A DNA stretch of 64,000 nucleotides from a virus. Shown piece by piece: positions 7,207 to 26,816 of the stretch. How positions within the stretch are numbered: position 1 is the first letter of the stretch; every line of letters starts with the position of its first letter. Position numbers and translations under genes: made by a program. The stretch covers positions 3,304 through 67,303 of the IMG/VR virus record IMGVR_UViG_3300030108_005626. One strand, written 5' to 3'. The notes beneath the pieces are model-generated. The model was not told where the DNA came from. It did no database searches and saw only the letters and a list, made by a program, of their open reading frames with translations.

Positions 7207-8475
7207 ATGAGTAAAAAAATAAAAGTCTTGACCCTTAGCGACATGCCGCTTAGTCCAAGCGGTGTAGGCACTCAAACTAGATATATTTGTGAGGCATTAC
7301 TTAAAACAGGTAAGTTCCAGATCCGTTCTTTTGGTGGAGCTATTAAGCACCCTAAGTATGATCCAATAAAAACAGAGCAATATGGAGATGATTGGATTAT
7401 GTATCCTGTTGATGGATACGGTAATAAAGAAATGGTGAGATCCATTGTTAGACAAGAAAAACCAGACATTATGTGGTTCATGACAGATCCACGTTTCTGG
7501 GGTTGGTTGTGGGAAATGGAAAATGAGATTAGACCTTTAATGCCTATGGTTTACTATCATGTTTGGGATAACTATCCATATCCAACTTTTAATAAAACGT
7601 TTTATGAATCTAATGACTTTATTGCAACAATCTCAAAAGTAACAGACGACATTGTAAAAACAGTTGCCCCTAGTGTGAAATCTCAATATATCCCACATGC
7701 TGTAAATGCAGATATATTTAAACCATGTGAATATGATGAACTAGTGGAAGAATTCAAGAAATCAACTTTCGGTGAATTTTACGATCCTGATAAGTTTATA
7801 TTTTTCTGGAACAATAGAAACGCAAGAAGAAAACAATCTGGGTCCTTAATTTTTTGGTTTAATGAATTTTTAGACCGAGTTGGTCGTGATAAAGCATGTT
7901 TAATAATGCACACTGAGGTTAAAGATCCAAATGGTCAAGATCTGCAACAAATTATAAATCACTTAAATTTGACAAACGGAGAAGTTTTGTTTAGTCAAGA
8001 AAAAGTAGACTTGCGGAAATTATCTCTAATGTATAACATGGCAGACTGCACAATAAATATTTCAGATGCAGAGGGTTTTGGTCTTGCCACTCTAGAGTCT
8101 CTTTCGTGTGGAACCCCAATAATTGTAAATATGACTGGAGGTTTACAAGAACAAATTGTAGATGGAGATGAAAAGTTTGGAATCCCTCTATATCCAGCAT
8201 CAAAAGCAATTATTGGATCTCAGACAATTCCATGGATTTATGAAGACAGATTAAATGAAGAAGATGTTATCAATGCGCTTGAAGAAATTTTTAACATGAC
8301 AGAAGATGATCGTAAAAAAATGGGAGAGCGCGGCAGGCAACATGTTATGAAAAATTATAATTTTGAAAACTTTAATAAAACATGGGTAGATGTTATGACT
8401 AATTTACATGAAGAGCAGGGATCGTGGGATACTAGAAAATACAACAATAGATGGACTCTAAAGGAGGTGTGCTAA
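7207..8475 (+). CDS. GT-B glycosyltransferase (GT4-like)
   Basis: SGVG N-terminal loop, NRNARRK and EGFGLATLE motifs. Confidence 0.9.
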   Translation: MSKKIKVLTLSDMPLSPSGVGTQTRYICEALLKTGKFQIRSFGGAIKHPKYDPIKTEQYGDDWIMYPVDGYGNKEMVRSIVRQEKPDIMWFMTDPRFWGWLWEMENEIRPLMPMVYYHVWDNYPYPTFNKTFYESNDFIATISKVTDDIVKTVAPSVKSQYIPHAVNADIFKPCEYDELVEEFKKSTFGEFYDPDKFIFFWNNRNARRKQSGSLIFWFNEFLDRVGRDKACLIMHTEVKDPNGQDLQQIINHLNLTNGEVLFSQEKVDLRKLSLMYNMADCTINISDAEGFGLATLESLSCGTPIIVNMTGGLQEQIVDGDEKFGIPLYPASKAIIGSQTIPWIYEDRLNEEDVINALEEIFNMTEDDRKKMGERGRQHVMKNYNFENFNKTWVDVMTNLHEEQGSWDTRKYNNRWTLKEVC

Positions 8476-9737
8476 TGAAAGTCTTAGTGAGAGGTCCTGC
8501 TTTAACTAGAACTGGATACGGTGAACACTGCCGCTTTGTATTACGCTCTCTTCGCAAAGTTCAAGGATTAGATATTTATTTACTACCGGTAAACTGGGGT
8601 AATTCTGCTTGGGTTTGGGAAAGCAACGAAGAGAGGGTTTGGTTAGACGAAATAATTAAAAAAACTGCATTATACGGTCAACAGAATGGTCAATACGACA
8701 TGTCAATTCAAGTTACTATCCCTAATGAATGGCAGCGCATGGCGCCAGTGAATATTGGTGTAACTGCTGGAATAGAAACTACAAAAGTTGCACCTATTTG
8801 GATACAAAAGTGTAATGAAATGGATAAAGTTATAACCATATCAGAACACTCGAAAAAAAGTTTCATAAATACAATTTATGAGGGTGTAGATCAAAGAACA
8901 GGACAAAAAGCAATACTAAAGTGTTCAAATGATATAGATGTCGTTCATTACCCTGTAAAAACTTTTGACTCTTTACCTGATTTAGATCTACAACTTAGTA
9001 CTAACTTTAACTTTTTATCTGTAGCTCAGTGGGGTCCAAGAAAGAATTTAGGGTCTACTCTTAAGTGGTTCGTAGAAGAATTTTTTGACAACCCCGACGT
9101 AGGATTAATATTAAAAACCTTTGTGAGCGGCGGTTCTGTTCTCGATAGGCAGGCGATATATCAAGAACTTCAAAATACACTAAAAAAATATAAAGATAGA
9201 GAGTGTAAAGTTTACCTACTTCATGGGGATTTTAGTGATGAAGAAATGCACTCTCTCTATAAGCATAAAAAAGTAAAAGCACTTGTAAGTTTAACTCATG
9301 GTGAGGGATTTGGATTACCTCTCTTTGAGTCTGCTTATTGCGGACTTCCAGTGGTAGCTACTGATTGGTCAGGTCATTTAGATTTTCTTTACAAACCAAC
9401 AAAAAGTAAAAATGGAAAAAGCAAAACTAAACCACATTTTGCTCGTATTGAATATTCTTTGCAACCAATTCACCCTTCTGCTGTATGGAAAGGTGTGTTA
9501 CAAGCGGATTCAATGTGGGCGTATCCCCAACAGGGATCATATAAAATGAAGTTAAGACAAGTGTATAAAGATTATGGTAGATTTAAATCTCAAGCAAAAA
9601 AACTCCAAACGTGGATAGTTAAAAATTTTGAAGAACAGAAACAATATGATTGTTTTAATAATGCTATTGATGACTTTTTACCATCAAAAGAAGACAGCGA
9701 GTGGATGCAGACATTAAGTGAGATAGAAATAGTTTAA
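8475..9737 (+). CDS. GT-B glycosyltransferase (GT4-like)
   Basis: TGYGEH, RKNL and EGFGLPLFE motifs. Start placed at ATG 8475 (TAATG coupling, AAGGAGG SD). Confidence 0.9.
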   Translation: MKVLVRGPALTRTGYGEHCRFVLRSLRKVQGLDIYLLPVNWGNSAWVWESNEERVWLDEIIKKTALYGQQNGQYDMSIQVTIPNEWQRMAPVNIGVTAGIETTKVAPIWIQKCNEMDKVITISEHSKKSFINTIYEGVDQRTGQKAILKCSNDIDVVHYPVKTFDSLPDLDLQLSTNFNFLSVAQWGPRKNLGSTLKWFVEEFFDNPDVGLILKTFVSGGSVLDRQAIYQELQNTLKKYKDRECKVYLLHGDFSDEEMHSLYKHKKVKALVSLTHGEGFGLPLFESAYCGLPVVATDWSGHLDFLYKPTKSKNGKSKTKPHFARIEYSLQPIHPSAVWKGVLQADSMWAYPQQGSYKMKLRQVYKDYGRFKSQAKKLQTWIVKNFEEQKQYDCFNNAIDDFLPSKEDSEWMQTLSEIEIV

Positions 9738-9738
9738 G

Positions 9739-10602
9739 ATGAACAGTGTAATTTTTGTTGCCGATTTTTTCAAAAAAGACTTACTTGGCGGTGGCGAATC
9801 TAATGATAATGTCTTAATTAATCATTTATTATCTAACGGTTATAAAGTAGATTGTAAAAGATGCACAGAGATTACCTCAAGAGATTTTGGTAAAAATAAA
9901 CTTTTTATAATAAGTAATTTTATATCTCTAACCGAAGAGAATAAGCAAAATTTAAAAAATGAAAATTACATTATTTATGAACATGACCATAAATATGTAA
10001 AAACTCGCGATCCAAGTAAATACAAAAATTTTTTAGCAACAGAAAAAAACATAGTTAATAGTTCTTTTTACCACAACGCATATGCCGTTGTAGTGTTAAG
10101 CAAAATATGTAAAGAAGTAATAGAAAAAAATCTTAATATAAAAAATGTTTATAATATAGGTTGCAGTTTATGGAGCGAAGAAAAATTTAATTATTTATCT
10201 ACATTGACTTCTGCAAAAAAGAAAAATAAATTTGTTGTATTAAATTCTTCAAACCCAACAAAAAACACAAACGAAGCGATAAATTTTTGTAAAAAAAATA
10301 ACATTGATTTTGACTTACTTGATCCATGTGACGAGAGAAAACTTTTACAAGAATTATCTAAATATCAAGGTTTGGTTTTCTTACCTAGCGTCTTAGAGAC
10401 ATTTTCAAGAATATCTGCTGAAGCAAAAATGTTAAATTGTAAATTATTAACAAAACCAAAGTTGCTAGGATTTGCATCTGAAAAAGATATTTTCACACTA
10501 AATGGAGAGAAGTTGATTGAGCAGTTAAAATTGAGAAATAAAAAAGCTTTGCAATTATTTTTAAAACTATTAAGCGACATGAAGGTAAATAACGATGAAT
10601 AG
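9739..10602 (+). CDS. Glycosyltransferase (GT-B, divergent)
   Basis: GGGE N-terminal loop and an ETFSRISAE E-x7-E motif. Confidence 0.7.
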   Translation: MNSVIFVADFFKKDLLGGGESNDNVLINHLLSNGYKVDCKRCTEITSRDFGKNKLFIISNFISLTEENKQNLKNENYIIYEHDHKYVKTRDPSKYKNFLATEKNIVNSSFYHNAYAVVVLSKICKEVIEKNLNIKNVYNIGCSLWSEEKFNYLSTLTSAKKKNKFVVLNSSNPTKNTNEAINFCKKNNIDFDLLDPCDERKLLQELSKYQGLVFLPSVLETFSRISAEAKMLNCKLLTKPKLLGFASEKDIFTLNGEKLIEQLKLRNKKALQLFLKLLSDMKVNNDE

Positions 10603-11464
10603 TATGGCAATTGCCTCTGACCATAACGGAGTGCAACTTAAAGAAAAAGTTAAAAAATTTCTTAAAGAGCAAGGCATATTGGTAGTTGATTTAGGTCCAT
10701 ATGATCCAAATAACAAAGTTGATTATGTTGATTACGCAAACCAGTTAGGTAAGATTGTTTCAAATAATGATGTTGACAGTGGTATCTTGATTTGTGGAAC
10801 AGGTGTCGGCATGAGCATTGCTGCAAATAGAAACAACAATGTTAGAGCGGCATTGGTACACAATCACTTTACTGCACCAAAATGTAGAGAACATAATGAT
10901 GCTAATGTTCTTTGTTTGGGTAGTTGGATAACTGATGAAACAGAAACGATAAAAATTGTTTCTACATGGATAGGCACTGATTTTGGACAAGGACGCCATG
11001 TGAAGCGAGTAGAAAAGTTGGACACCAGCGCAAAAGTTAATAAAATAATCTTTACCAATGGAGTTTTTGACATATTACATTCGGGGCACATAGAATTATT
11101 AAGATTTGCAAAAAGTTTGGGTGATAAATTAATAGTTGCAATTAATTCAGACAGTAGTGTAAAGAAAATAAAAGGCGAAAACAGACCGATAAACTGTGAA
11201 AAAGATAGAAAAAGTGTATTAGAATCAATAAGTTTTATTGATGAAGTTTTTGTTTTTGAAGAAAGCAATACAATAGAGATATTAGATAAAATTAAACCGA
11301 ATATCATTGTTAAAGGAGGCGAGTGGACAAAAGATCAGGTAAGGCAAAGAGATAAAATCCCAGATCAGATCGATATAAAAATATTTCCACTTGTAAAAAA
11401 TTACTCAACTACTGAAACTATAAATAAAATAAAAGAAATAGAGTCATGGTTAAAAAAATATTAA
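10595..11464 (+). CDS. rpiB: Fusion of RpiB/LacAB sugar-phosphate isomerase and RfaE domain II (HldC-like) nucleotidyltransferase
   Basis: N-terminal ASDHNG, DYVD, ICGTGVGMSIAAN, HNDANVL, GRHxxR. C-terminal FTNGVFDILHSGH, NSDSSV..KG..RP, KGGEW, YSTT. Confidence 0.92.
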   Translation: MNSMAIASDHNGVQLKEKVKKFLKEQGILVVDLGPYDPNNKVDYVDYANQLGKIVSNNDVDSGILICGTGVGMSIAANRNNNVRAALVHNHFTAPKCREHNDANVLCLGSWITDETETIKIVSTWIGTDFGQGRHVKRVEKLDTSAKVNKIIFTNGVFDILHSGHIELLRFAKSLGDKLIVAINSDSSVKKIKGENRPINCEKDRKSVLESISFIDEVFVFEESNTIEILDKIKPNIIVKGGEWTKDQVRQRDKIPDQIDIKIFPLVKNYSTTETINKIKEIESWLKKY

Positions 11465-12216
11465 TAATTGGCGACACAATAATTGATGAGGATATTAATT
11501 TAAAAGTTATTGGACTGTCCTTAGAATCTCCAACGTTTAAAACAAAGACATCAAGTAAAAAAATTAATTTTGGAGGCGCTGCTAATGTAGCGCGATACGC
11601 TAGTAAATTTGGACTAGATGTTGATTTTTTAACTTGCATGAGTGTTGATAGTGAGAAGCACTTTAAAAATAAATATGATATTAATTTAATCAATATTGAC
11701 AATAGTGTAGAAAATAGAAAAACCAGATTTTACATCGAGCATGGAGATTCAAAATACAAACACTTGCAGATAAATGAGACTAACTCAAAAAGTGTATACA
11801 CAAACCTTCAAGAAAAAGGTTTACAAAAATATGATTTGATTGCTTTCTCTGATTACAGATGCGGATTAATTTCAAAACACATAATAGAAAAAGTAAAGAA
11901 TAGTGGTAAAAAGACTTTCGGCGCATCACAAGTTTCAGGAAAAAAATCAAATTTAAATAACTATGAAAAATTAGATTATATTGTGTGTAATGAAAGTGAA
12001 TCAGACACAGTAACCCGCAGACAAAACGTTCTAATCACCAAAGGCGATCAAGGGTGTGAAATGAACGGTACCCTATATCCAGCATATCCAGTAAAGAATG
12101 TAGAAACAATTATTGGCGCTGGCGATTGTTTTTATGCTGCATTTTTAGCATACGAATGTCCATCAAAATCTAATGAACTTGCATCAAGGTACGTAAGTGG
12201 TGATTTGTTTTGTTGA
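11446..12216 (+). CDS. PfkB-family sugar-phosphate kinase (RfaE domain I/HldA-like)
   Basis: IIGDTIID, SLESP, GGAANVA, SDY and GAGD anion-hole motifs. Confidence 0.85.
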   Translation: MVKKILIIGDTIIDEDINLKVIGLSLESPTFKTKTSSKKINFGGAANVARYASKFGLDVDFLTCMSVDSEKHFKNKYDINLINIDNSVENRKTRFYIEHGDSKYKHLQINETNSKSVYTNLQEKGLQKYDLIAFSDYRCGLISKHIIEKVKNSGKKTFGASQVSGKKSNLNNYEKLDYIVCNESESDTVTRRQNVLITKGDQGCEMNGTLYPAYPVKNVETIIGAGDCFYAAFLAYECPSKSNELASRYVSGDLFC

Positions 12217-12884
12217 TTAATGAATTAATACAATGTAACCAATCTTTGCAAAAAGAAAACTTGGTAATCTATACATGGGGTAATGTTAGCTGCCGTGAGG
12301 GTAAATATATTCTTATAAAACCCTCTGGCGTTAAGTTTGATGATCTGTCAAAAGAAAATATTTCAAAAATTGATATATCCTCTGAAGATTTGATATCCGG
12401 ATATAAACCATCTGTTGATACTCCTACACACATCCATTTATATAAAAACTTTAGAAACATCAACGCTGTAGTGCATACTCATTCAAAGTATGCTACAATA
12501 TTCGCACAAGCAAAAAAACCAATACCGTGTTTAGGTACAACACATGCAGATTATTTCTATGGAGATATTCCTCTAGTCGATGATTTATCTTACGATGAGA
12601 TTGAAAACAACTATGAGCAAAACACTGGAAAAAAGATAGTTCAATACTTTAAAAAAAATTCAATTGATCCGTTGAACATGGGCGCAGCATTGTGTCCATC
12701 TCATGGAGTTTTTACATGGGGAAAAGATTTAAGTTCTGCTTTAAAAAATGCTATAGTATTAGAATATATAGCAGAAGTTGCCTACAAAACTTTAGTTTTA
12801 AACCCAGAACCTAATTTCAATAATGAATTATTAGATAAACATTTTTTGAGGAAGCACGGAAAAAAAAGTTATTATGGACAATGA
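12210..12884 (+). CDS. araD: L-ribulose-5-phosphate 4-epimerase (class II aldolase/epimerase family)
   Basis: TWGNVS, IKPSG, PSVDTPTH, HTHS, GTTHADYF and C-terminal KHFLRKHG..YYGQ. Confidence 0.92.
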   Translation: MLINELIQCNQSLQKENLVIYTWGNVSCREGKYILIKPSGVKFDDLSKENISKIDISSEDLISGYKPSVDTPTHIHLYKNFRNINAVVHTHSKYATIFAQAKKPIPCLGTTHADYFYGDIPLVDDLSYDEIENNYEQNTGKKIVQYFKKNSIDPLNMGAALCPSHGVFTWGKDLSSALKNAIVLEYIAEVAYKTLVLNPEPNFNNELLDKHFLRKHGKKSYYGQ

Positions 12885-13287
12885 AAATATAAAATATGGA
12901 CGTCAATCTCTCCCACCAATAGATAGCGTGGTAAAAAGCGTTGAAAAATATTGGGGAGATATGAAAACTCTCTTTGAAAATGATCAATATACCGTAAAAA
13001 GAATATTTATGAAAAAAAATACTCAAAGCAGTATGGAGTATCATGTCAAGAAGAAAGAATCATATTATATTGAAAAGGGTAAACTAAAGATTGGAACTAG
13101 GATAGGTAGAGCAAAAAATACATCTTTGATATTAAATCAAGGAGATGTATTTCACATACCAGTTGGTTTTATGCATATGAGAATAGCGTTAGAGGATACG
13201 GTAATTATAGAATTTTCCACACTAGATGATGACGCTGATTCTCACATTGTAGAAGATGGAAAAACTTATATTCACAAGGAGGACTAA
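12874..13287 (+). CDS. Cupin-domain protein (sugar isomerase/epimerase-like)
   Basis: YHVKKKESY...G and P...H cupin motifs. Confidence 0.8.
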   Translation: MDNENIKYGRQSLPPIDSVVKSVEKYWGDMKTLFENDQYTVKRIFMKKNTQSSMEYHVKKKESYYIEKGKLKIGTRIGRAKNTSLILNQGDVFHIPVGFMHMRIALEDTVIIEFSTLDDDADSHIVEDGKTYIHKED

Positions 13288-13956
13288 ATGAAACTTTTTT
13301 TAGACACTGCTAATTTATCTCAAATACAAGATGCTATGGATAAAGGGGTAATTCAAGGAGTCACCACCAATCCATCACTTTTGGCAAAGGAACCAAAAAC
13401 TGATTTTTACAAACATATCAAGAAAATAGTTGATTTGTGCAAAAATTATAATAATGGTGTGCCTTTAAGTGTTGAAGTTTTTTCCATGAATCCTGACGAA
13501 ATGATTAATCAAGCAAAAGAAATAACAAAAGAACTTGACTATGATAAACTAAACATAAAAGTTCCAGTGGGTTTTGAAGAACTAAGAGTGATAAAAGAAC
13601 TGTCTCAACAGAATATAAAAGTTAATTGTACTTGCTGCTTCACTGCTACTCAAATGCAACTAGCCGCTCTGGCAGGCGCCAGATACGTTTCTCTTTTCTA
13701 TAACAGACTATATGATGCTAGTGGAGATCCGCTAAAAACTCTAAAAAGAGTAAGAACATTTATTGATAACAATAATTTAAATTGTGAAATCATTGCTGGA
13801 AGTATTAGAAATGGTTATGATTTAGAGGATGCATGGGATAGCGGAGCACACATAGTTACCGCTGGGTATGGAGTAGTAAAAAAGTCTACTCAGCATCCAA
13901 AAACAGATGAATCTGTAGATGGATTTTTAAAAGATTTTAAAGATTGGATAAATTAA
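13288..13956 (+). CDS. tal: Transaldolase (short TalC/MipB family)
   Basis: LFLDTA, GVTTNPSL, SVEV, Schiff-base Lys in IKVP, GSIR, HPKT..F..D. Confidence 0.92.
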   Translation: MKLFLDTANLSQIQDAMDKGVIQGVTTNPSLLAKEPKTDFYKHIKKIVDLCKNYNNGVPLSVEVFSMNPDEMINQAKEITKELDYDKLNIKVPVGFEELRVIKELSQQNIKVNCTCCFTATQMQLAALAGARYVSLFYNRLYDASGDPLKTLKRVRTFIDNNNLNCEIIAGSIRNGYDLEDAWDSGAHIVTAGYGVVKKSTQHPKTDESVDGFLKDFKDWIN

Positions 13957-14285
13957 TGGTTTACGTGTTTGACATAGATGGCACAATTTGCACTAATACA
14001 TATGGCGATTATGAAAAATCTAAACCGTTTTTAACTAGGATAGAGTATGTAAATAAATTGTATGATGAAGGAAACACAATAATATTCAATACTGCAAGAG
14101 GCATGGGAAGAAATAAAAATAATGCAGGTTTAGCGCATTTAGACTTTTATGATTTTACAAAAAACCAACTTGACGCATGGGGTGTTAAGTACCATCAATT
14201 ATTTTTAGGAAAACCAGCAGGGGATATTTATGTTGATGATAAAGGTTCTTTTGACAAAGATTTCTTTAAAGTTGTCGAGAGTTGA
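13956..14285 (+). CDS. Small HAD-family phosphatase (capsule-biosynthesis type)
   Basis: FDIDGT, TARG, GKP and YVDDK motifs. Start at ATG 13956 by TAATG coupling. Confidence 0.85.
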   Translation: MVYVFDIDGTICTNTYGDYEKSKPFLTRIEYVNKLYDEGNTIIFNTARGMGRNKNNAGLAHLDFYDFTKNQLDAWGVKYHQLFLGKPAGDIYVDDKGSFDKDFFKVVES

Positions 14286-14668
14286 AAGTGTTCACGAACG
14301 GATGTTTCGATATAATACATCGAGGACACTTAGAATTATTAAAATATTGTAAAACTTTAGGTTATGTTGTTGTCGGATTAAACAGTGATAACAGCGTTAA
14401 AAGGTTAAAGGGACAAGAAAGACCAATAAATAATCAATCCGATAGAAAACATTTACTTGAGTGTTTAAAGTTCGTAGATGAAGTTATCATTTTCGATGAA
14501 GATACTCCTATAAATTTGATTAATCAGATCCAACCGGATGTTGTGGTAAAAGGTGGAGATTATAAAGCAGAGGAAGTTATCGGATCAAACGTATGTGAGG
14601 TAAAAATATTTAATTATGTCAATGGATATTCAACAACACAAACAATTGAACGTATTAATAATAGGTGA
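14282..14668 (+). CDS. RfaE domain II (HldC-like) heptose-1-phosphate nucleotidyltransferase
   Basis: FTNGCFDIIHRGH, GLNSDNSVKRLKG..RP, VKGGDY, GYSTT. Confidence 0.92.
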   Translation: MKVFTNGCFDIIHRGHLELLKYCKTLGYVVVGLNSDNSVKRLKGQERPINNQSDRKHLLECLKFVDEVIIFDEDTPINLINQIQPDVVVKGGDYKAEEVIGSNVCEVKIFNYVNGYSTTQTIERINNR

Positions 14669-15404: not shown

Positions 15405-15767
15405 ATGACATTAAAAAGTTTAAACATAAAATTTGTACCCAAAGGATGGGGATATGAAAGATGGATTGTAAACAAAGAGGAATATTGTGGAAAACTACTA
15501 TTTTTTGTTAAAGATAAAAGATGCTCTTGGCATTATCACAAACTAAAAGATGAAGTTTTTTATATACAATCTGGTAAAGTTTTGGTAAAATATTCAGATG
15601 ATGATGACATAACTAAAGCAAGTGAAGTTGTTTTATCGAAAGGAGACAACTTTCATGTATACAGAGGGTTGAGACACCAGATGATTGCCATAGAAGATAC
15701 TGAATTATTTGAATTTTCAACTCAACATTTTGATGAAGATAGTTATAGGGTTATAAAAGGAGATTAA
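15405..15767 (+). CDS. Cupin-domain protein (sugar isomerase-like)
   Basis: KGWGYE, SWHYHKLKDEVF and RH motifs. Confidence 0.85.
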   Translation: MTLKSLNIKFVPKGWGYERWIVNKEEYCGKLLFFVKDKRCSWHYHKLKDEVFYIQSGKVLVKYSDDDDITKASEVVLSKGDNFHVYRGLRHQMIAIEDTELFEFSTQHFDEDSYRVIKGD

Positions 15768-19650: not shown

Positions 19651-20627
19651 GATATTTAGTTACAGGTGCTACTGGGTTTGCTGGACCCCATATGATAAAC
19701 AAAATTCTTGAAGACCCAAGCAATGAAGTTGTAGCTATGGTTAGAAATTTAGAAACTTGTAGAGGAATTGTTAACATTGTTAAAGATAACATTGATAAAA
19801 TTGAATTCGTCTATGGAGATCTAGAAGACTTAGATTCAATAACAAAAATATTTACAGAAGATGTTTTTGATGGTGTGTTTCACTTGGGTGCATTTGCCCA
19901 TCCTCCTTCATCTTTTGAAACTCCACTTTTGGCATCTCAAACTAATCTTTTAGGTACTGCTAGAATTTGTGATGAAATTATTGAGAACATGCCTCTTTGT
20001 GTTCTTATGCATTGCTCAACTCCAGAAGTATATGGTATATGCCCAGCAAATTCAAAGATAGATGAATCAACACCATATAATCCCAATAATCCATATGGTG
20101 TATCAAAAGCGGCATCAGATATGTATGTTCTAGAAAGAACAAACAATACAGACCTAAGAGCGTTTTTGACTAGAGCATTTTCTCATACCGGTCCACGAAG
20201 GGGTAGTAATTTTTCAATATCTTCGGATGCTATCCAAATTGCTAAGATAATTAAGGGACAACAAGAACCAGTAATAAAAATAGGCAATATGACATCTCAA
20301 AGAATTGTTGCCGATGTGCGAGATGTTGTTGATGCTTATTATCAATTAATGGTTAAATTCCAACAAGATGAAATAAAGTGTGGAGAGATATTTCACATAG
20401 CAGGAGATGATTTACATCCTATGCAGCACTATTTAGATTTAATGCTACAAATGCATAATCTTGAAGATACAAAATTAGAAATTGAACCAAAGTATTTTAG
20501 GAAAGTAGATATTCCAATACAAATTCCAGATGATTCAAAAGTTAGAAATTTTTTAAACTGGAAACCATCAATACCTATTGAAAAAACTTTAAGAGATCTT
20601 GTAGACTATTGGTTGGAGGAAGTGTAA
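19647..20627 (+). CDS. GDP-mannose 4,6-dehydratase/reductase-like SDR
   Basis: VTGATGFAG, SFETP, STPEVYG, PYGVSK, HTGPRRG, GN...R..DVRD. Confidence 0.85.
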   Translation: MRYLVTGATGFAGPHMINKILEDPSNEVVAMVRNLETCRGIVNIVKDNIDKIEFVYGDLEDLDSITKIFTEDVFDGVFHLGAFAHPPSSFETPLLASQTNLLGTARICDEIIENMPLCVLMHCSTPEVYGICPANSKIDESTPYNPNNPYGVSKAASDMYVLERTNNTDLRAFLTRAFSHTGPRRGSNFSISSDAIQIAKIIKGQQEPVIKIGNMTSQRIVADVRDVVDAYYQLMVKFQQDEIKCGEIFHIAGDDLHPMQHYLDLMLQMHNLEDTKLEIEPKYFRKVDIPIQIPDDSKVRNFLNWKPSIPIEKTLRDLVDYWLEEV

Positions 20628-21698
20628 ATGGGAATTAAAGATGTTGATGGACATAAACTCATGTATTATCCAGAGGAGGTGGCAACGTGGAAAAAAACCG
20701 GCGCTGCGACCCCACTGCATGTAGAGATTGGACCCACGAATAGGTGTCAACATCATTGTAGTTTTTGCAGTGTTGACTGGATTACTCATGGCGTTGTAAG
20801 AATAGATAAGGACGTTTTAGTTAGAGCTATTGAGTCTATGGGCGATGTTGGAGTAAGATCCATATATTTTGCAGGAGAGGGAGAACCTTTGCTGCACCCA
20901 GGAATGGAAGACTTTGTTCAAACAGCGCACAAAAGAGGAATAAAAACATCAATGGCAACAAATGGAGGACTTTTAAATCAAAGAAGACTTCCAGGTCTTT
21001 TGCCTTATTTTTCTTGGATTAGGTTCAGTATTGATGCTGCAACTCCAGAAACACATCAAAGTATACATAAATCTAAAGATTTTAATAGAATTATCAAAAA
21101 TATAAGACTAGCGTGTGAATATAAAAAAGAACATAAATTACCAGTTGAACTAGGAGTTCAGTTTATTGTATTGGAAGAGAATTTAGAAGAAATGGAAATG
21201 TTTGCTGATCTGATGAAAGATGTCGGTGTTGATAATATTCAATATAAACCGCACCACAATCACCCTAAAAGCGCATCCAATCCCACTTTGTATAGTTTAA
21301 CTGATGAAGCTTTGCGATTAAGACTAATCAATCGTACAACAGATGATTTTCAAGTTATGGTACGCAGTAGAAATCTTGAAGAGATGCCACTTATTCCTGG
21401 TCAAGATCACAACTATTGTTACAAGAAATGTCATGCATATAACTTTCTAACGTTAATCGACGCCAAGGGTGGTTGTTATGGTTGCAACATCTTTTATGAT
21501 CAAAAAGATTATAGTTTTGGAAACATTTATGAACAATCTTTTGAAGAGATACATACAAGTGGTCAAGTTCAAGAAATCATAGAAAAGGTTGCAAAATTGA
21601 ACCATTCACAATGCGGGAATTATAAGTGTAGACCTCATGTATTAAATGAGTATTTAAATAGAATTGCAAATCCCGAACTCAATGATGAATTTATTTAG
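20628..21698 (+). CDS. Radical SAM enzyme with SPASM/twitch domain
   Basis: CQHHCSFC, GEGEPLL and TNG motifs; C-terminal Cys cluster with FGNI. Confidence 0.92.
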   Translation: MGIKDVDGHKLMYYPEEVATWKKTGAATPLHVEIGPTNRCQHHCSFCSVDWITHGVVRIDKDVLVRAIESMGDVGVRSIYFAGEGEPLLHPGMEDFVQTAHKRGIKTSMATNGGLLNQRRLPGLLPYFSWIRFSIDAATPETHQSIHKSKDFNRIIKNIRLACEYKKEHKLPVELGVQFIVLEENLEEMEMFADLMKDVGVDNIQYKPHHNHPKSASNPTLYSLTDEALRLRLINRTTDDFQVMVRSRNLEEMPLIPGQDHNYCYKKCHAYNFLTLIDAKGGCYGCNIFYDQKDYSFGNIYEQSFEEIHTSGQVQEIIEKVAKLNHSQCGNYKCRPHVLNEYLNRIANPELNDEFI

Positions 21699-21716: not shown

Positions 21717-22592
21717 ATGAAGATGTTGTTTGTCGGAGTTTTTGATAAACTCGGAAGATCTACTAATGTATCACAAATTTTAGCGTTAAAAAAAATAGGT
21801 TGTGAAGTTTATGGATATAACTTCAAGCAAAAAGAGTTGCAAATAGGATCTGCGGAGAGAGACAAACATCTTGTTGAGTATGTTAAACAAAACAATTTCG
21901 ATCTAGTATTATACAGCAAAAGCACTGGAATCTCATTTGATTGTTTTAAAAAAATAAATTTGATTACAACCACTTGTTTGTGGTGGATGGACCCATTGTC
22001 AACATTGGGACAACATCCAGAGATACTTGAAAAGAGTAGCGAAGTAGATTTTGTTGTAACTGGTGTAAAAAACACAATACCGATATTTTACGAAAAAAAC
22101 AAAAATACATTTTTTGCAATTGAGGGTTTTGATGAGAACGTTGATCAACCTCATGATTTAAAAAAACAATATGATGTTACATTCATCGGGTCGCTGCACT
22201 CTCAAAGACAAAAGTTAATGAATCAAATAGTCCACCCAGTCAATCATGTAACAAATGCATATTCTAGAAAGCACGCTGAGATAGTTTCAAAAAGTAAAAT
22301 ATGTTTAAATTTTTCTACTGCTGGAGGTGCTTCTGATAGAGTTTTTAAGACGTTAGCGGCAGGCGGTTTTCTTTTAACTTCTGATTGGCAAGGTAGAGAT
22401 GAATTGTTTTCTGATGGAGAACATTTAATAATTTATGATGATATTCAAGATTTAAATGATAAAATATCTTATTATTTAAATAATCAGCAACTTAGAGATA
22501 AAATATCTATGCAGGGAAACAAAAAAGTCCAAGAATATGGACGTATCGGTTGGGCACAAGAAATATTAAACTTTTATGAAGGAATCAAATGA
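21717..22592 (+). CDS. Glycosyltransferase (CgeB-like)
   Basis: DVTFIGS, SKICLN and RVFKTLAAGGFLL motifs. Confidence 0.8.
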   Translation: MKMLFVGVFDKLGRSTNVSQILALKKIGCEVYGYNFKQKELQIGSAERDKHLVEYVKQNNFDLVLYSKSTGISFDCFKKINLITTTCLWWMDPLSTLGQHPEILEKSSEVDFVVTGVKNTIPIFYEKNKNTFFAIEGFDENVDQPHDLKKQYDVTFIGSLHSQRQKLMNQIVHPVNHVTNAYSRKHAEIVSKSKICLNFSTAGGASDRVFKTLAAGGFLLTSDWQGRDELFSDGEHLIIYDDIQDLNDKISYYLNNQQLRDKISMQGNKKVQEYGRIGWAQEILNFYEGIK

Positions 22593-23560
22593 ATAACAAA
22601 ATTAAAATTGGATTAATTGGAGTTGGGTACTGGGGTAAAAATATTCTTAGGAACATCGTTACATCTGAAAAAACACAGATTGCCTGCGTATGCGATAAAA
22701 ATGTCAAACTCGCAAGACAAAGACTGAAAGAGCACAATCTTCTTGATAAAGTGAGGGTTTACGATAGTTTAATTAACTTTTATAATCACGAAGATATGGA
22801 CGCAGTTGCCATCGCAACACCAGCTGGAACACATTATGAATTGTCAAAATTGTCTTTGGAAAACAATAAACACGTATTAGTTGAAAAACCTATGTGTTTT
22901 ACCACAGCAGAAGCAAGAAAAATGGTAAATTTAGCAAATAAAAACAATTTAACTTTAATGTGTGATCATACATTTTGCTTTTCTGGAACTACAAATGCCG
23001 TCAAAAAAATAGTCAACAGTGGTGAACTTGGGAACATCATTAGCATTAATTCATCTAGGTTGAATCTTGGTTTATTTCAAAAAGACACTAACGTTATATG
23101 GGATTTAGCACCTCACGATTTTTCTATCCTGCAACACATTTTAGGTAATTTTGAAGTAAAGTCTCAAAACGTTCATGTAACGAAATCACCGGTATCAGAG
23201 TTTGCAGCGGAGTCTCATGTATTTCTACAAACAAAATCAAACATTCAAGTTACAGTTTATAGCAGTTGGATTAGTCCAGTTAAGGAACGAAAACTTGTTG
23301 TAGTTGGCGATAAAAAAATGTTAGTTTGGGATGACCTAGCAGAAGATAAAATAAAAGTTTATGATAAAAATGTCAAAAAAGTAAATAATAAGATAGAGTA
23401 TTATGATAATGGATTTGAAGTGGTAAATTTTGATAAAACTGAACCTTTATTGAACATGATTAATCACTTTGCAGACTGCATTGCCAATGGTAAAGAAAGT
23501 ATATCCAGCGGTGAAAAGTCTTATCAAATAGTAAAAATTTTAAGTGAAGCGAATGAATGA
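22589..23560 (+). CDS. Gfo/Idh/MocA oxidoreductase (WbpB/WlbA-like sugar 3-dehydrogenase)
   Basis: GVGYWG, VEKP and WDLAPHD motifs; adjacent to an acetyltransferase and an aminotransferase. Confidence 0.88.
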   Translation: MNNKIKIGLIGVGYWGKNILRNIVTSEKTQIACVCDKNVKLARQRLKEHNLLDKVRVYDSLINFYNHEDMDAVAIATPAGTHYELSKLSLENNKHVLVEKPMCFTTAEARKMVNLANKNNLTLMCDHTFCFSGTTNAVKKIVNSGELGNIISINSSRLNLGLFQKDTNVIWDLAPHDFSILQHILGNFEVKSQNVHVTKSPVSEFAAESHVFLQTKSNIQVTVYSSWISPVKERKLVVVGDKKMLVWDDLAEDKIKVYDKNVKKVNNKIEYYDNGFEVVNFDKTEPLLNMINHFADCIANGKESISSGEKSYQIVKILSEANE

Positions 23561-24035
23561 CATATCAGATCATGCAATCGTATCAGAAGACGTAAAGATT
23601 GGAAAAAATACAGTTATATATCATTGGTGCAATTTATACGGATGTGTAATAGGTGAAAACACTAAGATAGGAACGTTTGTTGAGGTACAAAAAAATGTAC
23701 GTATTGGAAATAATTGCAAAATATCTAGTCATTCTTTTATTTGCGAGGGTGTTTCAATAGGTAATAATTGTTTTATTGGTCATGGAGTTATGTTTATAAA
23801 CGACAGACATCCTAAGTCTATCAATGAAAATGGAACATTAGCAACAGGTGAAGATTGGATACTAGAAAAAACAAATATATCTGATAATGTTAGCATAGGA
23901 ACTGGTGCAATAATAATGTGTGGTGTGAATATTGGTCCTAACGCCACCATAGGCGCAGGCGCCGTAGTAACAAAAGACGTTGAAGCAAACAAAACTGTTG
24001 TTGGAATCCCAGCAAGAGTTGTTAATAAGGATTAA
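23544..24035 (+). CDS. Hexapeptide-repeat N-acetyltransferase (WbpD/WlbB-like)
   Basis: Repeated IG..xxI hexapeptides, FIND..P and GAGAVVTKDV...VGIPAR. Confidence 0.9.
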   Translation: MKRMNDISDHAIVSEDVKIGKNTVIYHWCNLYGCVIGENTKIGTFVEVQKNVRIGNNCKISSHSFICEGVSIGNNCFIGHGVMFINDRHPKSINENGTLATGEDWILEKTNISDNVSIGTGAIIMCGVNIGPNATIGAGAVVTKDVEANKTVVGIPARVVNKD

Positions 24036-24036
24036 A

Positions 24037-25167
24037 ATGAAACAAATTACAGTGCCTTTTTTAGATTTAAAAAAACAGCATAAAAAAATAAAAAAACAAA
24101 TTTTAAAAAATTGGGAAGACATACTTGTTAACGCATCTTTTGTTGGAGGAAGTTGGGTTGAAAAGTTTGAAGACCAGTTTAAAAGTTTTTGTGAGACTGA
24201 CGCCTGTGCCGCAGTTGATAGTGGAACTGACGCCCTAGAGGTTGCTCTAAGATCGCTAGGTGTAAAACCTGGTGATGAAATATTAGCACCCGCAAATACT
24301 TTTTATGCAACAGTTGAGGCAATTCTTCTTATTGGTGCTATTCCTGTTTTAGTTGATTGTAAGCATGGAACATGGAATATTAACGAAGATCTTATTGAAG
24401 AAAAATTAAATTCAAAAACTGTTGGAATTATTGGTGTTCATTTATACGGAAATCCTTGTGAGATGGACACCATAAATAAGATTGCAGAAAGACACAACCT
24501 TTGGGTTTTAGAGGATAGCGCACAAGCACACGGCGCAACTTACAAAGGGAGAAAGTGTGGTTCTCTTGGTAACGCAGCTGCGTTTTCATTTTATCCTGGT
24601 AAAAACTTAGGATCAACCGGTGAAGGTGGAGCAATAACATCAAACAACAAAGAGTTTATTGACAGGTGCAAGCAAGTAAGAAATCATGGATGCAAAGTAA
24701 AATATGTTCATGAAATTCTTGGAAAGAATTCAAAAATGCCAACACTAATTGCATCAGCGTTGTCTGTAAAGATGAATTACATTGAAGAGTGGACTGAAAA
24801 ACGTAGAAGAAATGCAGCATATTATTATAAATATTTAAGTAATGTTAAACAAATAGAATTACCTGAAATAAAAGATTACAGCAACCCCGTTTGGCATTTG
24901 TTTGTTGTTCATGATAAAACAAACAACAGAGATAAACTTCACGAGTATCTAAAGAGTCAAAACATAAGTACGGGATTTCACTATCCAGTACCAGTGCATA
25001 TGCAAAATCATTTTAAAAATATATACAAACCAGATGATTTCCCAGTTGCTAAGTATAACGCAAGTCAATCTTTAAGTTTGCCTATGTATCCAGAATTAAC
25101 AAAAAAACAAATTAAATTTGTTTGCGACAAAGTAAAAGAGTTTTATAAACAACATGAAAAAAGATAA
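24037..25167 (+). CDS. DegT-family aminotransferase (WbpE/WlbC-like)
   Basis: VPFLDL, SGTDAL, EDSAQAHGA, SFYPGKNLG, HYPVPVH, LSLPMYP. Start taken as ATG 24037. Confidence 0.93.
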   Translation: MKQITVPFLDLKKQHKKIKKQILKNWEDILVNASFVGGSWVEKFEDQFKSFCETDACAAVDSGTDALEVALRSLGVKPGDEILAPANTFYATVEAILLIGAIPVLVDCKHGTWNINEDLIEEKLNSKTVGIIGVHLYGNPCEMDTINKIAERHNLWVLEDSAQAHGATYKGRKCGSLGNAAAFSFYPGKNLGSTGEGGAITSNNKEFIDRCKQVRNHGCKVKYVHEILGKNSKMPTLIASALSVKMNYIEEWTEKRRRNAAYYYKYLSNVKQIELPEIKDYSNPVWHLFVVHDKTNNRDKLHEYLKSQNISTGFHYPVPVHMQNHFKNIYKPDDFPVAKYNASQSLSLPMYPELTKKQIKFVCDKVKEFYKQHEKR

Positions 25168-26002
25168 ACTATTAATCGCTGGTCCTTGGATTGGAGAATT
25201 TGGATGGGAATTGTTCGCTTGGCAAGGATATGTGCGAGCGCTATCGGAAAAATTTGATCAAACAATTTGTATATCCTCACCTCATTCTAAATTTATTTAT
25301 GAAGATTTTTGTGATGAGTTTTTAAGTTTCACACCGATGGACAAAGGTGGGTATAAAGATTCTTTTTTTAGAACTGATTTTAAGATGAATAAAAAAATTC
25401 TTTTAGATATTTTGAAGCAAAGTAAAATTGACATAAAACAAAAAAACACAACACTGTTTGTGCCAAAAAGAATTGGAGATCCGCCGAGAACTCACTTTTC
25501 CGAACCTATGAATTTAGCGCAGTATAGTTTGTCACCAAAATATGTCAAATTTGCAGACAATAAAAACAAAGAGAAAACAGTTCTTGTTCATGCTAGAAAT
25601 AGAAAACTAAGATCAAAAGACAATTGGTCTGTAGAGAAATGGAAAGAATTAGTTTCTTTATTAAAAGAGATAGATCTATCAGTTATATCAATTGGATTAA
25701 AAAAAGAAGCAATGCATATTCCAGGGACAGAGGATAAAAGAGAGTGTGATCAAGAAGAACTTTTAAAAATAATATCCTCATCTGAATGCATATTTGGACA
25801 ATCATCAGGTGCCATGCACTTATCAACTTTATGTGGATGCCCTCAAGTTGTTTGGTCAGATATGTATAATTTTGATAGATACACAAAAAACTGGAATCCA
25901 TTTGATGTTGATGTTTTATTTTTAGCAGAACAAGAATGGCAACCTGAAGTTAAATACATTTTCGAAAAATTTGTAGAATGGAGAAAAACTAATGGAGCAT
26001 AA
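25154..26002 (+). CDS. GT9-like glycosyltransferase (divergent)
   Basis: GEFGWE loop, NWSVEKW and SSGAMHLSTL (GT9-type SGxxH). Confidence 0.65.
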   Translation: MKKDKLLIAGPWIGEFGWELFAWQGYVRALSEKFDQTICISSPHSKFIYEDFCDEFLSFTPMDKGGYKDSFFRTDFKMNKKILLDILKQSKIDIKQKNTTLFVPKRIGDPPRTHFSEPMNLAQYSLSPKYVKFADNKNKEKTVLVHARNRKLRSKDNWSVEKWKELVSLLKEIDLSVISIGLKKEAMHIPGTEDKRECDQEELLKIISSSECIFGQSSGAMHLSTLCGCPQVVWSDMYNFDRYTKNWNPFDVDVLFLAEQEWQPEVKYIFEKFVEWRKTNGA

Positions 26003-26816
26003 TAACGTAGGAGTTGTTGGTTTTGGATTTGTTGGGAAAGCAGTTAGTCAAATTTCAACAATTAGATCTCTAGATATATACGATCCAAATAATGAAGATT
26101 ACAATTCTGTTGATCAAAAAATTAGAGCATATAACTGCGATATTATATTTATAAATGTCCCAACAAATTTAAAAAATGGAAGATTAGATTTATCAATTTT
26201 AAATGAGTGTTTATTTTCATATAGGGCGCACAATTTAAATAAAAATTCAACAATTGTTATAAAATCTACCGTACCAGTTGGAACGTGTAGGGACCTTTCT
26301 GAAAAACATAATATTGAAAGTCTTGTATTCAATCCAGAGTTTTTATCCGAAAGAACCGCAATGGAAGACTTTATAAATGAAAAAGAATTATATTTAGCTG
26401 GTGAAAAAAGACATACAGAAAAAGTTAAAGAACTGTATGTTGAATTTTATAAAAAATGTGAGAATGGTGAATTACAAATATTTGAAACTGAATCTTGGGA
26501 AGAAATTGAATTATTAAAACTAGCGAGAAACACTTTTTATGGATTGAAGGTTTCTTATTGTAATAACATTTATAATCTGTGTAAATCAAAGAATATTGAC
26601 TATGATAAATTTAGAAAACACTTCTCTAGAGGAATATGGGTTGGAGATCAACATACTCATGTACCAGGACCAGACGGAAAGTTTGGATATGGTGGAAAGT
26701 GTTTGCCAAAAGATTCTACAGAATTATTAAACTTTTGTAAAAAACAAGGTATAATATTTGAAATGCTTGAAAAATCAATATTATTTAACGCAGAACAAAG
26801 GAGTAAGCATGAGTGA
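25992..26816 (+). CDS. UDP-glucose/GDP-mannose 6-dehydrogenase family, lacking the C-terminal domain
   Basis: GFGFVG, VPT, IKSTVPVG, NPEFL and GYGGKCLPKD motifs. Confidence 0.88.
   Translation: MEHNNVGVVGFGFVGKAVSQISTIRSLDIYDPNNEDYNSVDQKIRAYNCDIIFINVPTNLKNGRLDLSILNECLFSYRAHNLNKNSTIVIKSTVPVGTCRDLSEKHNIESLVFNPEFLSERTAMEDFINEKELYLAGEKRHTEKVKELYVEFYKKCENGELQIFETESWEEIELLKLARNTFYGLKVSYCNNIYNLCKSKNIDYDKFRKHFSRGIWVGDQHTHVPGPDGKFGYGGKCLPKDSTELLNFCKKQGIIFEMLEKSILFNAEQRSKHE

Follow-up and report, generated by a model that had tools for sequence, protein, structure and literature searches.

A hypervariable, putative glycan-assembly slot behind two conserved GT4 glycosyltransferase genes in a lineage of large marine myoviruses, and the question of its acceptor

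The literature on sugar-gene clusters of marine myoviruses goes back to 2005 (PMC1079782; PMC7029224; PMC12801897). Here we ask which molecule would serve as acceptor for the product of an island of sugar and glycosyltransferase genes at positions 7207-26816 of a 64,000-nucleotide stretch of viral DNA (the window), which corresponds to positions 3304-67303 of the linear, 67,303-bp contig of IMG/VR record IMGVR_UViG_3300030108_005626, a genome fragment on which no terminal repeat was found. The island proves to consist of a pair of conserved GT4 glycosyltransferase genes and, behind them, a slot with a content that is exchanged wholesale between close relatives. We propose that it is a phage-owned, hypervariable glycan-assembly cassette that would operate with soluble enzymes only in the cytoplasm of the infected cell, and our leading hypothesis, to which we assign a probability of about 40%, is that a phage-encoded molecule, probably a virion protein, serves as acceptor of the chain, which would give the progeny particles a sugar coat specific to the strain.

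The island comprises 25 consecutive open reading frames (ORFs) on the plus strand, numbered g01 to g25, whose neighbours overlap or lie at most 18 nt apart. This bears out the original prediction, made from the letters of the sequence, of 25 contiguous and co-oriented genes, as does their position just upstream of a late sigma factor gene (phrog_234, E-value 4e-7) and of baseplate genes (gp25-like and gp6-like). Nearly all genes of the contig lie on the same strand, no intergenic gap between 3690 and 36779 exceeds 42 nt, and the GC fraction of the island (0.29-0.35) is similar to that of its flanks. A chimeric join to a bacterial locus, which the original prediction had named as grounds for refuting it, is ruled out by this match in GC and by boundary-spanning contigs of independent studies: the interior at 9001-19000 recurs near-identically in sequencing runs of several studies, the contigs of four runs from four other studies (2014, 2017, 2023 and 2025) each cover 30 of 30 bins of 7100-27099, and thus the whole island, at ≥95% identity, and single contigs span both the conserved/variable boundary at 10602 (e.g., 10366-12565) and the right end (from 22123 to past 27099, covering 26816-27099). 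The block genuinely belongs to the phage. Short "joints" and loose ends in these contigs, with sides of 20-25 letters, were considered as rearrangements and are read instead as strain variants or unitig ends; no RNA datasets were among the sequencing runs listed for the island.

Scans of IMG/VR recovered 122 relatives of the late sigma factor and 115 of g02, and 80 of each were kept, giving 160 loci in 128 distinct groups. More than 100 related marine viral contigs share the same frame, with a nuclease and two GT4 genes on the left and zinc-ribbon, late sigma and baseplate genes on the right. In the window, this frame consists of the following features (here and below, plain numbers in brackets are E-values):

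3690..5003, + strand: PIN-PhoH ATPase, left conserved flank (Pfam PhoH 1.4e-53, PIN_4 1.2e-27)
6393..7199, + strand: PD-(D/E)XK nuclease, left conserved flank (Pfam PDDEXK_1 2.7e-19; phrog_69 exonuclease)
7207..8475, + strand: g01, conserved anchor GT4 with an E-x7-E motif (Pfam Glycos_transf_1 1.1e-12, GT4-conflict 2.6e-7)
8451..9737, + strand: g02, second conserved anchor GT4 (Pfam Glycos_transf_1 3.2e-9)
9739..10602, + strand: g03, compact GT-B glycosyltransferase, semi-conserved third anchor (predicted fold)
26758..28534, + strand: right conserved flank of five genes, encoding a 90-aa protein, a zinc-ribbon protein, a 95-aa single-pass membrane protein, the late sigma factor and a 98-aa protein (Zn_ribbon_8 8.3e-8; phrog_234 late sigma 4e-7)
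28536..39042, + strand: downstream baseplate module, with a GH25-domain protein, an 1860-aa protein and gp25-like and gp6-like proteins (Glyco_hydro_25 7.2e-18; phrog_43/261 and phrog_219 baseplate wedge)

Within the 80 loci centred on g02, the PhoH gene is present in 68, the nuclease in 77, g01 in 78, g02 in all 80 and g03 in 43; the corresponding numbers for the 80 sigma-centred loci are 68 for the 90-aa protein, 54 for the zinc ribbon, 74 for the 95-aa protein and 80 for the 98-aa protein. Flank genes occur in 55-88 of the 128 groups, and interior genes each in 1-53 (the AraD-type epimerase in 2, the acetyltransferase in 1). Siblings whose sigma factors are 92-96% identical carry unrelated interiors, and the size of the interior ranges from 3.8-9.9 kb in relatives where both anchors fit one 20-kb locus, through 17 kb here, to about 20 kb in G002, a complete relative of 190,629 bp (CheckV 100%). 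The interior of G002 encodes GDP-fucose genes, GT11, GT10-like and GT2 transferases, a sulfotransferase with an APS kinase, a carbamoyltransferase and a Rieske protein. Conserved flanks around a variable interior had been predicted beforehand, and this is the arrangement found across the 160 loci and 128 groups. The genes g01 and g02 behave like core genes that a large marine myovirus clade passes on vertically, and g03 often joins them. Matches of 1.9 kb to g02 in some loci, considered as an insertion, turned out to be g01 and g02 counted together.

The two anchors are paralogues (27% identity over 150 aa), with the start of g02 overlapping the end of g01 by 25 nt, and each has an invariant pair of glutamates (E289 and E297 across 39 sequences in g01, E285 and E293 in g02). 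Their best solved relative is in both cases the chlorovirus glycosyltransferase B736L, which g01 matches with a full-length alignment at 1.3e-15 and g02 at 1.2e-8. The g01 family is abundant in marine data, with 7621 proteins at E ≤ 1e-5 among the 8000 candidates scored, and the best 120 of them are at least 71% identical. The third anchor, g03, has no Pfam, NCBIfam or PHROG match and was identified by its fold: the AlphaFold model, based on an alignment of 39 relatives, has a predicted local distance difference test score (pLDDT) of 95.3 and yields 214 PDB matches at E ≤ 0.001 in Foldseek, to GT-B transferases that include glycogen synthase, the T4 α-glucosyltransferase (rank 2), Gtf3 and BshA. 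Members of the g03 family retain a G-G-x-E motif near the N terminus, together with an E-x7-E-like pair. Four further transferases lie in the interior:

15768..16631, + strand: g13, probable GT9-like glycosyltransferase, tentative (Pfam Glyco_transf_9 only at E 0.078)
16628..17491, + strand: g14, probable GT1/GT4-like glycosyltransferase, tentative (Pfam Glycos_transf_1 only at E 0.036)
21717..22592, + strand: g20, glycosyltransferase of the Glyco_trans_1_2 family (PF13524 6.3e-22; 78.5 bits against a cut-off of 25)
25154..26002, + strand: g24, heptosyltransferase-like glycosyltransferase of GT9 fold (AlphaFold pLDDT 86.2)

In the Foldseek results for g24, WaaC (1.9e-6), WaaF and a GT9 protein of Veillonella occupy ranks 1-7 and the protein heptosyltransferase TibC rank 10; the protein carries the motif "GPSSGPMHLA", and Pfam GT9 reaches only E 0.025. 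For g13, the leads are a GT9-like motif, "CDSGMPWIASA", and 30 Atlas look-alike clusters, seven of which carry GT9 in part, and for g14 they are Atlas look-alikes (score 0.97-0.99) that are viral "glycosyl transferase family 1" clusters. The GT9-like proteins of the island are short (282-287 aa). Searches of PDB sequences with g03 alone, and with profiles of the g03 and g24 families, returned nothing meaningful, and folding alone resolved both; hhalign with 3-sequence profiles gave a probability of 16.5% for g13 against g24 and of 1.5% for g14 against g03. The count therefore stands at five well-supported glycosyltransferases, three by Pfam (g01, g02 and g20) and two by fold (g03 and g24), with g13 and g14 as two probable ones on weaker leads, in agreement with the "about 7" estimated earlier. 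In the proposed mechanism, g13, g14, g20 and g24, two of them GT9-like, would add sugars one after another.

A megablast search of 50,697 phage records with the island returned a single match, of 330 bp at 75.8% identity, between window positions 8232-8561, where g01 ends and g02 begins, and positions 9001-9330 of MT408532.1. In this genome, that of Synechococcus phage SynMITS9220M01, the matched segment lies on a 116-aa ORF annotated as "putative nucleotidyltransferase", within that phage's own sugar island; it appears to be a relic of a GT4-pair junction swapped between lineages.

The sugars themselves would be supplied by the remaining genes of the interior, for which several nucleotide-sugar pathways had been predicted and for which Pfam and NCBIfam point to at least four routes of sugar activation. 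Genes g04 to g12 contain two parallel modules, A and B:

10595..11464, + strand: g04, fusion of an RpiB sugar-phosphate isomerase and an HldE-type nucleotidyltransferase, module A (LacAB_rpiB 2.2e-50, CTP_transf_like 7.9e-19)
11446..12216, + strand: g05, PfkB sugar kinase, HldE-kinase-like, module A (PfkB 3.7e-15; rfaE_dom_I 2.3e-19, below cut-off)
12210..12884, + strand: g06, AraD-type L-ribulose-5-phosphate 4-epimerase, module A (Aldolase_II 1.1e-47)
12874..13287, + strand: g07, small mannose-6-phosphate-isomerase-like cupin, module A (Cupin_1 9.8e-9, MannoseP_isomer 3.2e-6)
13288..13956, + strand: g08, transaldolase or fructose-6-phosphate aldolase of TalC/FSA type (TAL_FSA 2.2e-44)
13944..14285, + strand: g09, HAD phosphatase with a GmhB-like role (phrog_1238 2.8e-27; TIGR01689 capsule biosynthesis phosphatase 5e-11)
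14282..14668, + strand: g10, HldE-type nucleotidyltransferase, module B (CTP_transf_like 4.2e-18)
14616..15401, + strand: g11, HldE-type heptose-7-phosphate-kinase-like PfkB kinase, module B (PfkB 3.4e-18)
15405..15767, + strand: g12, small cupin, module B, candidate isomerase replacing GmhA (Cupin_2 3e-8)

Module B duplicates module A, with 46% identity between g10 and the C-terminal half of g04, 24% between g11 and g05, and 37% between g12 and g07. The N-terminal half of g04 passes the rpiB equivalog model (154.9 bits against 138.65) and g06 passes the AraD subfamily model NF006047 (283.8 bits against 257); most other specific models are matched below their cut-offs, as for the C-terminal half of g04 (rfaE_dom_II, 153.3 bits against 181.5), g08 (TIGR00875, 173 bits against 246), g10 (rfaE_dom_II 2.4e-48, 163.6 bits against 181.5) and g11 (rfaE_dom_I 7.8e-41, 140 bits against 345), and g09 has no Pfam match at E ≤ 0.01. 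A kinase, a nucleotidyltransferase, an HAD phosphatase and a cupin travel together in 22 loci, representing 19 groups, often with a short-chain dehydrogenase/reductase (SDR) alongside.

The enzymes of ADP-heptose synthesis are GmhA, HldE, GmhB and HldD, and it is plausible, judging by their families, that this set of four maps onto the steps of that pathway with a cupin in place of the SIS isomerase. Small cupins occupy the position of GmhA, and Pfam detects no SIS-type GmhA in the 37 window proteins on which it was run, all 25 of the island among them. A cupin is a plausible substitute because its relatives include mannose-6-phosphate-isomerase-like proteins and the conversion of sedoheptulose-7-phosphate to manno-heptose parallels that of fructose-6-phosphate to mannose-6-phosphate. 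In module B, the transaldolase would supply sedoheptulose-7-phosphate, the cupin g12 would isomerise it, the kinase g11 would phosphorylate C1, the HAD phosphatase g09 would strip the distal phosphate and g10 would form the nucleoside-diphosphate (NDP) heptose. Module A may follow a like logic with the fusion g04, the kinase g05, the epimerase g06 and the cupin g07, and its product is probably an NDP-pentofuranose, because RpiB and AraD act on pentose-5-phosphates. Chemical logic of the kind proposed for module A is known from the phage UDP-arabinofuranose pathway of RB69, DLP3 and HY126, where a ketose-5-phosphate isomerase, a C1 kinase, an HAD phosphatase and a nucleotidyltransferase act in turn; the enzymes are unrelated to those of the island, for in RB69 the isomerase is of SIS type and a GT-A-type nucleotidyltransferase is fused to an APH-type kinase (PMC13326640), as against RpiB, a cupin, a PfkB kinase and an HldE-type nucleotidyltransferase here.

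The RpiB-nucleotidyltransferase fusion is widespread, with 3063 homologues at E ≤ 1e-10; the best 120 all carry both domains and lie on contigs of up to about 200 kb. None of 154 cultured phage records has it at ≥80% coverage. Some fusion proteins are publicly labelled as belonging to archaeal, Flavobacteriaceae or deltaproteobacterial metagenome bins (P0205, P0209, P0213, P0215), and these may be viral contigs binned with cells, given the phage context of the fusion here.

The second part of the interior contributes two further candidate routes:

17488..18087, + strand: g15, sugar N-formyltransferase (Formyl_trans_N 9.5e-17)
18100..19053, + strand: g16, SDR, NDP-sugar 4,6-dehydratase or epimerase (Epimerase 1.9e-48)
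19063..19650, + strand: g17, short DegT-like protein of 195 aa (DegT_DnrJ_EryC1 1.8e-13)
19647..20627, + strand: g18, SDR, GDP-mannose-dehydratase-like (GDP_Man_Dehyd 1.9e-57)
20628..21698, + strand: g19, radical SAM/SPASM enzyme (Radical_SAM 5.2e-22, SPASM 1.5e-6)
22589..25167, + strand: g21-g23, WbpB/WbpD/WbpE-like trio of a GFO/IDH/MocA sugar 3-dehydrogenase (g21), a hexapeptide N-acetyltransferase (g22) and a DegT aminotransferase (g23) (GFO_IDH_MocA 2.1e-25; Hexapep 1.1e-25; DegT 5.9e-112)
25992..26816, + strand: g25, short NDP-sugar 6-dehydrogenase-like protein of 274 aa (UDPG_MGDP_dh_N 7.4e-16, central domain 4.3e-15)

We take g15-g19 to represent an amino-deoxy sugar route, in which a 4,6-dehydratase, the aminotransferase-like protein, the radical-SAM enzyme and the formyltransferase would yield an N-formyl amino-deoxy sugar. 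Here, too, the specific models are matched below their cut-offs: those for ArnA and for the dTDP-4-amino-4,6-dideoxyglucose formyltransferase in g15, those for dTDP-glucose dehydratase (8.4e-47) and heptose_epim (6.9e-30) in g16, and the DesII model (2.1e-14) in g19. The DegT-like g17 covers only positions 164-235 of the DegT profile, its middle third, and several relatives retain this short form (196 aa in G002), which probably makes it a small family of its own and not a degraded gene; a further relative, L122, has a full-length aminotransferase in this place. All four classes of WbpA (g25), WbpB (g21), WbpD (g22) and WbpE (g23) are present, presumably as a pathway of the UDP-2,3-diacetamido-glucuronic acid type that would lead to a 2,3-diacetamido uronic acid; every specific model scores below its cut-off, including that for UDP-GlcNAc 3-dehydrogenase on the trio (3.3e-44). 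The protein encoded by g25 has no C-terminal nucleotide-sugar-binding domain, and its length, too, is kept in relatives. Its end overlaps by 58 nt the ORF of the 90-aa flank protein (26758-27030), which is kept family-wide even where g25 is missing. The enzyme classes are thus firm and the exact sugars are not, because most specific NCBIfam models score below their curated cut-offs.

No membrane machinery for the assembly or export of a lipid-linked polymer accompanies these genes. Hydropathy (Kyte-Doolittle, 19-residue window, threshold 1.6; a crude measure that is blind to peripheral membrane binding) finds a single hydrophobic segment among the 25 island proteins, an internal stretch of the aminotransferase g23, which upholds the prediction of an all-soluble cytoplasmic set; in the whole 67.3-kb contig any such segment occurs in 5 of 62 ORFs, none of them multi-pass like Wzx, Wzy or WecA. 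Together with Pfam, which detects none of the Wzx, Wzy, Bac_transf, WecA-type and ABC-2 families in the 37 proteins examined, this confirms that the island has no Wzx, Wzy, ABC transporter, initiating transferase or multi-pass protein. Export or polymerase genes elsewhere in the genome, which had been named as evidence for a host surface polysaccharide, were found neither in the 67-kb contig nor in G002, where each ORF has at most four hydrophobic segments and Pfam shows no Wzx, Wzy, phosphoglycosyl transferase or ABC-2 family in 215 of the 224 ORFs (nine boundary-crossing ORFs lay outside the scan). G002 does encode, outside its island, a 4-helix PAP2 membrane phosphatase beside a fatty-acid hydroxylase (L167:7626-9163), which hint at lipid or envelope modification, and the APS kinase of its island is fused to a two-helix DUF2061 membrane domain (L164:949-1680).

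Cultured relatives are distant. The nearest records by the gp6-like protein are Flavobacterium phage immuto, Microcystis phage Mel-JY01 and the uncultured, 484-kb LR756508 (31-32% identity at 98-99% coverage), and the same three are closest when gp6 and g01 are taken together, at about 31-34% identity. Homologues of g01 at ≥87% coverage are found in the cultured immuto, Mel-JY01 and Rhodothermus phage RM378 and in the uncultured LR756508. By these comparisons, and with the 330-bp segment as its only match to a cyanophage, the phage lies outside the T4-like cyanophage and pelagiphage lineages in which sugar clusters were described. The hosts of the three isolates (Flavobacterium, Microcystis and Rhodothermus) belong to different phyla. 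In immuto, the nuclease is followed, after 36 nt and one small ORF, by two glycosyltransferase genes and about 11 kb of sugar genes; in Mel-JY01, the DNA-replication genes (PolB, clamp loader) are followed downstream by the nuclease, GuaB, the glycosyltransferase pair and an island of smaller size; and RM378 has a glycosyltransferase gene and a following 425-aa protein, a putative counterpart of g02, among replication genes and with no sugar island. In the literature searched, judged by titles and abstract openings, no link between immuto and glycosyltransferases was found.

It was from the missing membrane components that the original prediction had argued for virion glycosylation. The soluble, cytoplasmic nature of the enzyme set stands, and the step from there to virion proteins is not supported as argued, since lipooligosaccharide-type assembly likewise uses only soluble or peripheral enzymes. 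The core of lipopolysaccharide (LPS) and lipooligosaccharides are assembled by WaaC, WaaF and WaaG, which are soluble or peripheral transferases, the decoration of wall teichoic acid proceeds likewise, and export in these systems is by the host's own flippases. Because such assembly requires no membrane proteins from the phage, their absence cannot separate a virion acceptor from a host-envelope one. A phage-encoded acceptor is favoured instead, indirectly, by the conservation of the glycosyltransferase pair across phages whose hosts have differing envelopes, a pattern more in keeping with a conserved target of the virus than with a lipid of the host, and by the resemblance of g01 and g02 to a chlorovirus enzyme.

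Several points besides the sufficiency of host flippases weigh against this acceptor. The fold of g24 is closer to the lipid A-core transferases WaaC and WaaF than to the protein heptosyltransferase TibC, and published readings of similar clusters, those of P-SSM2 (PMC1079782) and of pelagimyophages (PMC7029224), favour a change of host LPS. In RM378 and Mel-JY01 the glycosyltransferase pair sits among genes for replication and nucleotide metabolism, not among structural genes. The structural and flanking proteins of the window contain no Ser/Thr-rich tract that might point to sites of O-glycans. The island lies upstream of the late sigma gene, and promoter signals are not above chance, so that co-expression with virion genes cannot be read from the sequence: sigma-70-like sites number 98 against 94.1 ± 9.4 expected, terminator-like ones 11 against 8.5 ± 3.1, and TATAAATA, which we take to be the T4-late promoter motif, occurs 12 times against 9.9 ± 3.4. 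As to the enzymes, the identities of the sugars are inferred, with most NCBIfam matches under their curated cut-offs, g13 and g14 are named as transferases on weak evidence, and g07 and g12 have only weak, generic cupin matches in the PDB, with no informative solved relative. More neutrally, the acceptor of chlorovirus B736L is itself undefined (PMC9614988; PMC5408694), and DNA transferases resemble B736L as well (PMC6024577).

Under the strongest of the other explanations, the transferases would work at the inner membrane face on a host lipid, be it the lipid A-core (lipooligosaccharide type), a different lipid-linked precursor or a glycolipid of the diacylglycerol type. Export of the product would fall to host flippases (MsbA/Lpt or equivalents), and the changed surface would block other phages or keep progeny from sticking to debris. 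Besides the published precedents, this is supported by the coexistence of a heptose-type pathway with GT9 folds, a hallmark of the LPS inner core, given that WaaC and WaaF are the best fold matches of g24, by the glycolipid and LPS GT4 enzymes among the NCBIfam matches of g01, by its compatibility with a lack of membrane genes, and by the PAP2 phosphatase and fatty-acid hydroxylase of G002, which hint at changes in envelope lipids. We nevertheless regard it as somewhat less likely than a phage-encoded acceptor: the anchor pair is kept in phages of Flavobacterium, Rhodothermus and Microcystis, whose core lipids differ and make a common host acceptor hard to name, LPS newly made in a lytic infection would leave the existing surface receptors in place, and Pfam and NCBIfam reveal no Kdo transferase, lipid A gene or ligase in the island. 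A host protein or small molecule, modified for take-over or counter-defence, or no chain at all, with the genes serving auxiliary pentose-phosphate metabolism, is less probable still. Transaldolase is a metabolic gene in some cyanophages, g01 and its relatives pass the Pfam model "GT4 in conflict systems" (30.4 bits against a cut-off of 26), and RM378 keeps the glycosyltransferase pair without a sugar island; yet the pentose-phosphate genes are tied to sugar activation, because genes for a kinase, a phosphatase and nucleotidyltransferases alternate with them and the best 120 homologues all have RpiB joined to a nucleotidyltransferase in one protein, and a variable, 17-kb set for decorated sugars would be excessive for one small target.

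The original prediction also listed DNA as an acceptor, with the transferases placing sugars on phage bases to escape restriction, as in T-even phages and RB69. Such a role can be argued from the rank of the T4 DNA α-glucosyltransferase among the fold matches of g03, from the likeness of DNA transferases to B736L, from the nuclease beside the glycosyltransferase pair and, in RM378 and Mel-JY01, the replication genes around it, and from the phage pentose-activation pathway of like logic that serves DNA arabinosylation (PMC13326640). That pathway, however, relies on a ThyA homologue, and the routes to hydroxymethylcytosine (hmC) and 5-hydroxycytosine (5hoC) both need a ThyA-family enzyme (PMC13326640); a ThyA-family gene is present in none of five CheckV-complete relatives, nor among the 37 window proteins (Pfam), and no TET/JBP or C5-methylase family was reported in 215 of the 224 ORFs of G002. 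Published liquid chromatography-UV-mass spectrometry of immuto DNA lists dA, dC, dT and fdPreQ1, which replaces dG, with no glycosylation among these nucleosides (bioRxiv 10.1101/2023.04.13.536721). Seven transferases, and the sulfation and carbamoylation genes of the relatives, also far exceed the DNA glycans in the cited papers, which are glucosyl-hmC (PMC6024577) and mono- to tri-arabinosyl-5hoC (PMC13326640). DNA is therefore now disfavoured, and we consider it a highly improbable acceptor.

The island can be compared with several known systems. With the ADP-heptose pathway it would share the roles of kinase, nucleotidyltransferase, HAD phosphatase and SDR, and GT9-fold proteins occur in both; it differs from it by having no SIS GmhA, by its separate kinase and nucleotidyltransferase and by scores under the equivalog cut-offs, which make g04, g10 and g11 evident relatives of HldE that stop short of equivalogs. 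The mycobacteriophages studied by Freeman et al. in 2023 infect Actinobacteria and reportedly carry one to a few glycosyltransferase genes each. As summarised in PMC12619734, their transferases glycosylate capsid and tail-tube proteins inside the cell; core transferases have been noted in another aquatic phage lineage (PMC12619734). As in chloroviruses and mimiviruses, we find nucleotide-sugar pathways of the virus's own, soluble cytoplasmic transferases and clade-specific gene sets; unlike the island, which is known from its genes alone, those viruses infect eukaryotes and their virion glycans have been shown chemically (PMC9614988; PMC5408694). In kind, the island is a known one, that of the clusters of P-SSM2, pelagimyophages, S-SCSM2R and SynMITS9220M01, which likewise consist of contiguous sugar and glycosyltransferase genes in a variable region of a lytic phage. 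The "LPS" clusters of marine T4-like phages are hypervariable regions near tail genes, with rfaE-type heptose genes and UDP-sugar dehydrogenases (PMC1079782; PMC7029224; PMC12801897; MT408532), whereas the slot described here is framed by two core GT4 genes and a late sigma block; and where SynMITS9220M01 has an annotated phosphoheptose isomerase, the island has a cupin that would replace GmhA, and an RpiB fused to a nucleotidyltransferase.

The GT4-anchored slot of this lineage does not appear to be described in the literature searched. New here are also the two parallel HldE-like modules, one with the RpiB-nucleotidyltransferase fusion and both with cupins as putative replacements of GmhA, the fold-based naming of g03 and g24, and the argument on DNA from the published chemistry of immuto. 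It is possible, and we suggest it tentatively, that an abundant clade of ocean myoviruses of about 190 kb coats its own particles with strain-specific, heavily decorated glycans through an autonomous cytoplasmic pathway anchored by two GT4 enzymes. The coat would then be made of heptose, pentofuranose and N-formyl and N-acetyl amino sugars here, and include fucose, sulfate and carbamoyl groups in relatives. If so, particle coating would be the bacterial-virus counterpart of giant-virus glycosylation, and autonomous viral glycosylation would extend from giant viruses and actinophages to Gram-negative marine phages; swappable, self-made sugar coats would be general among common ocean phages, with a bearing on host finding, the avoidance of decoys and grazers, and persistence in seawater. 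If the host envelope is the target, lytic phages would rewrite LPS without membrane genes of their own. The fusion and the cupin modules are widespread candidates for new sugar-activation chemistry and, if the assignments are true, would define new, GmhA-independent routes to NDP-pentose and NDP-heptose. The frame is shared by the cultured immuto and Mel-JY01, which makes the acceptor question testable.

Some observations concern the surroundings of the island. In the left flank, a 222-aa protein (5291-5959) occurs in 62 of the 128 groups and has no family; its sub-threshold, metalloprotease-type Pfam match (E 0.014) is likely due to chance. On the right, the conserved 95-aa protein between the zinc-ribbon and late sigma genes (27287-27574) has one N-terminal transmembrane helix and is found in 72 of the 128 groups. 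The only sizeable minus-strand gene (2754-3548) is protease-like (phrog_9683, 7.2e-7), and G002 has a trypsin-like peptidase gene nearby. Four presumed structural proteins are very large, at 31197-36779 (1860 aa), 40876-50226 (3116 aa), 51331-54729 (1132 aa) and 54952-58458 (1168 aa); those of 1860, 1132 and 1168 aa have no PHROG family, and the 3355-aa counterpart of the 3116-aa ORF in G002 carries a concanavalin/laminin-G-like lectin domain. Finally, an ORF ahead of the window (contig positions 22-1032) resembles adenylosuccinate synthase, judging from its translation alone, and purine-nucleotide genes recur in the clade, as an IMPDH/GMP-reductase-family gene in G002 and as the annotated GuaB in Mel-JY01.

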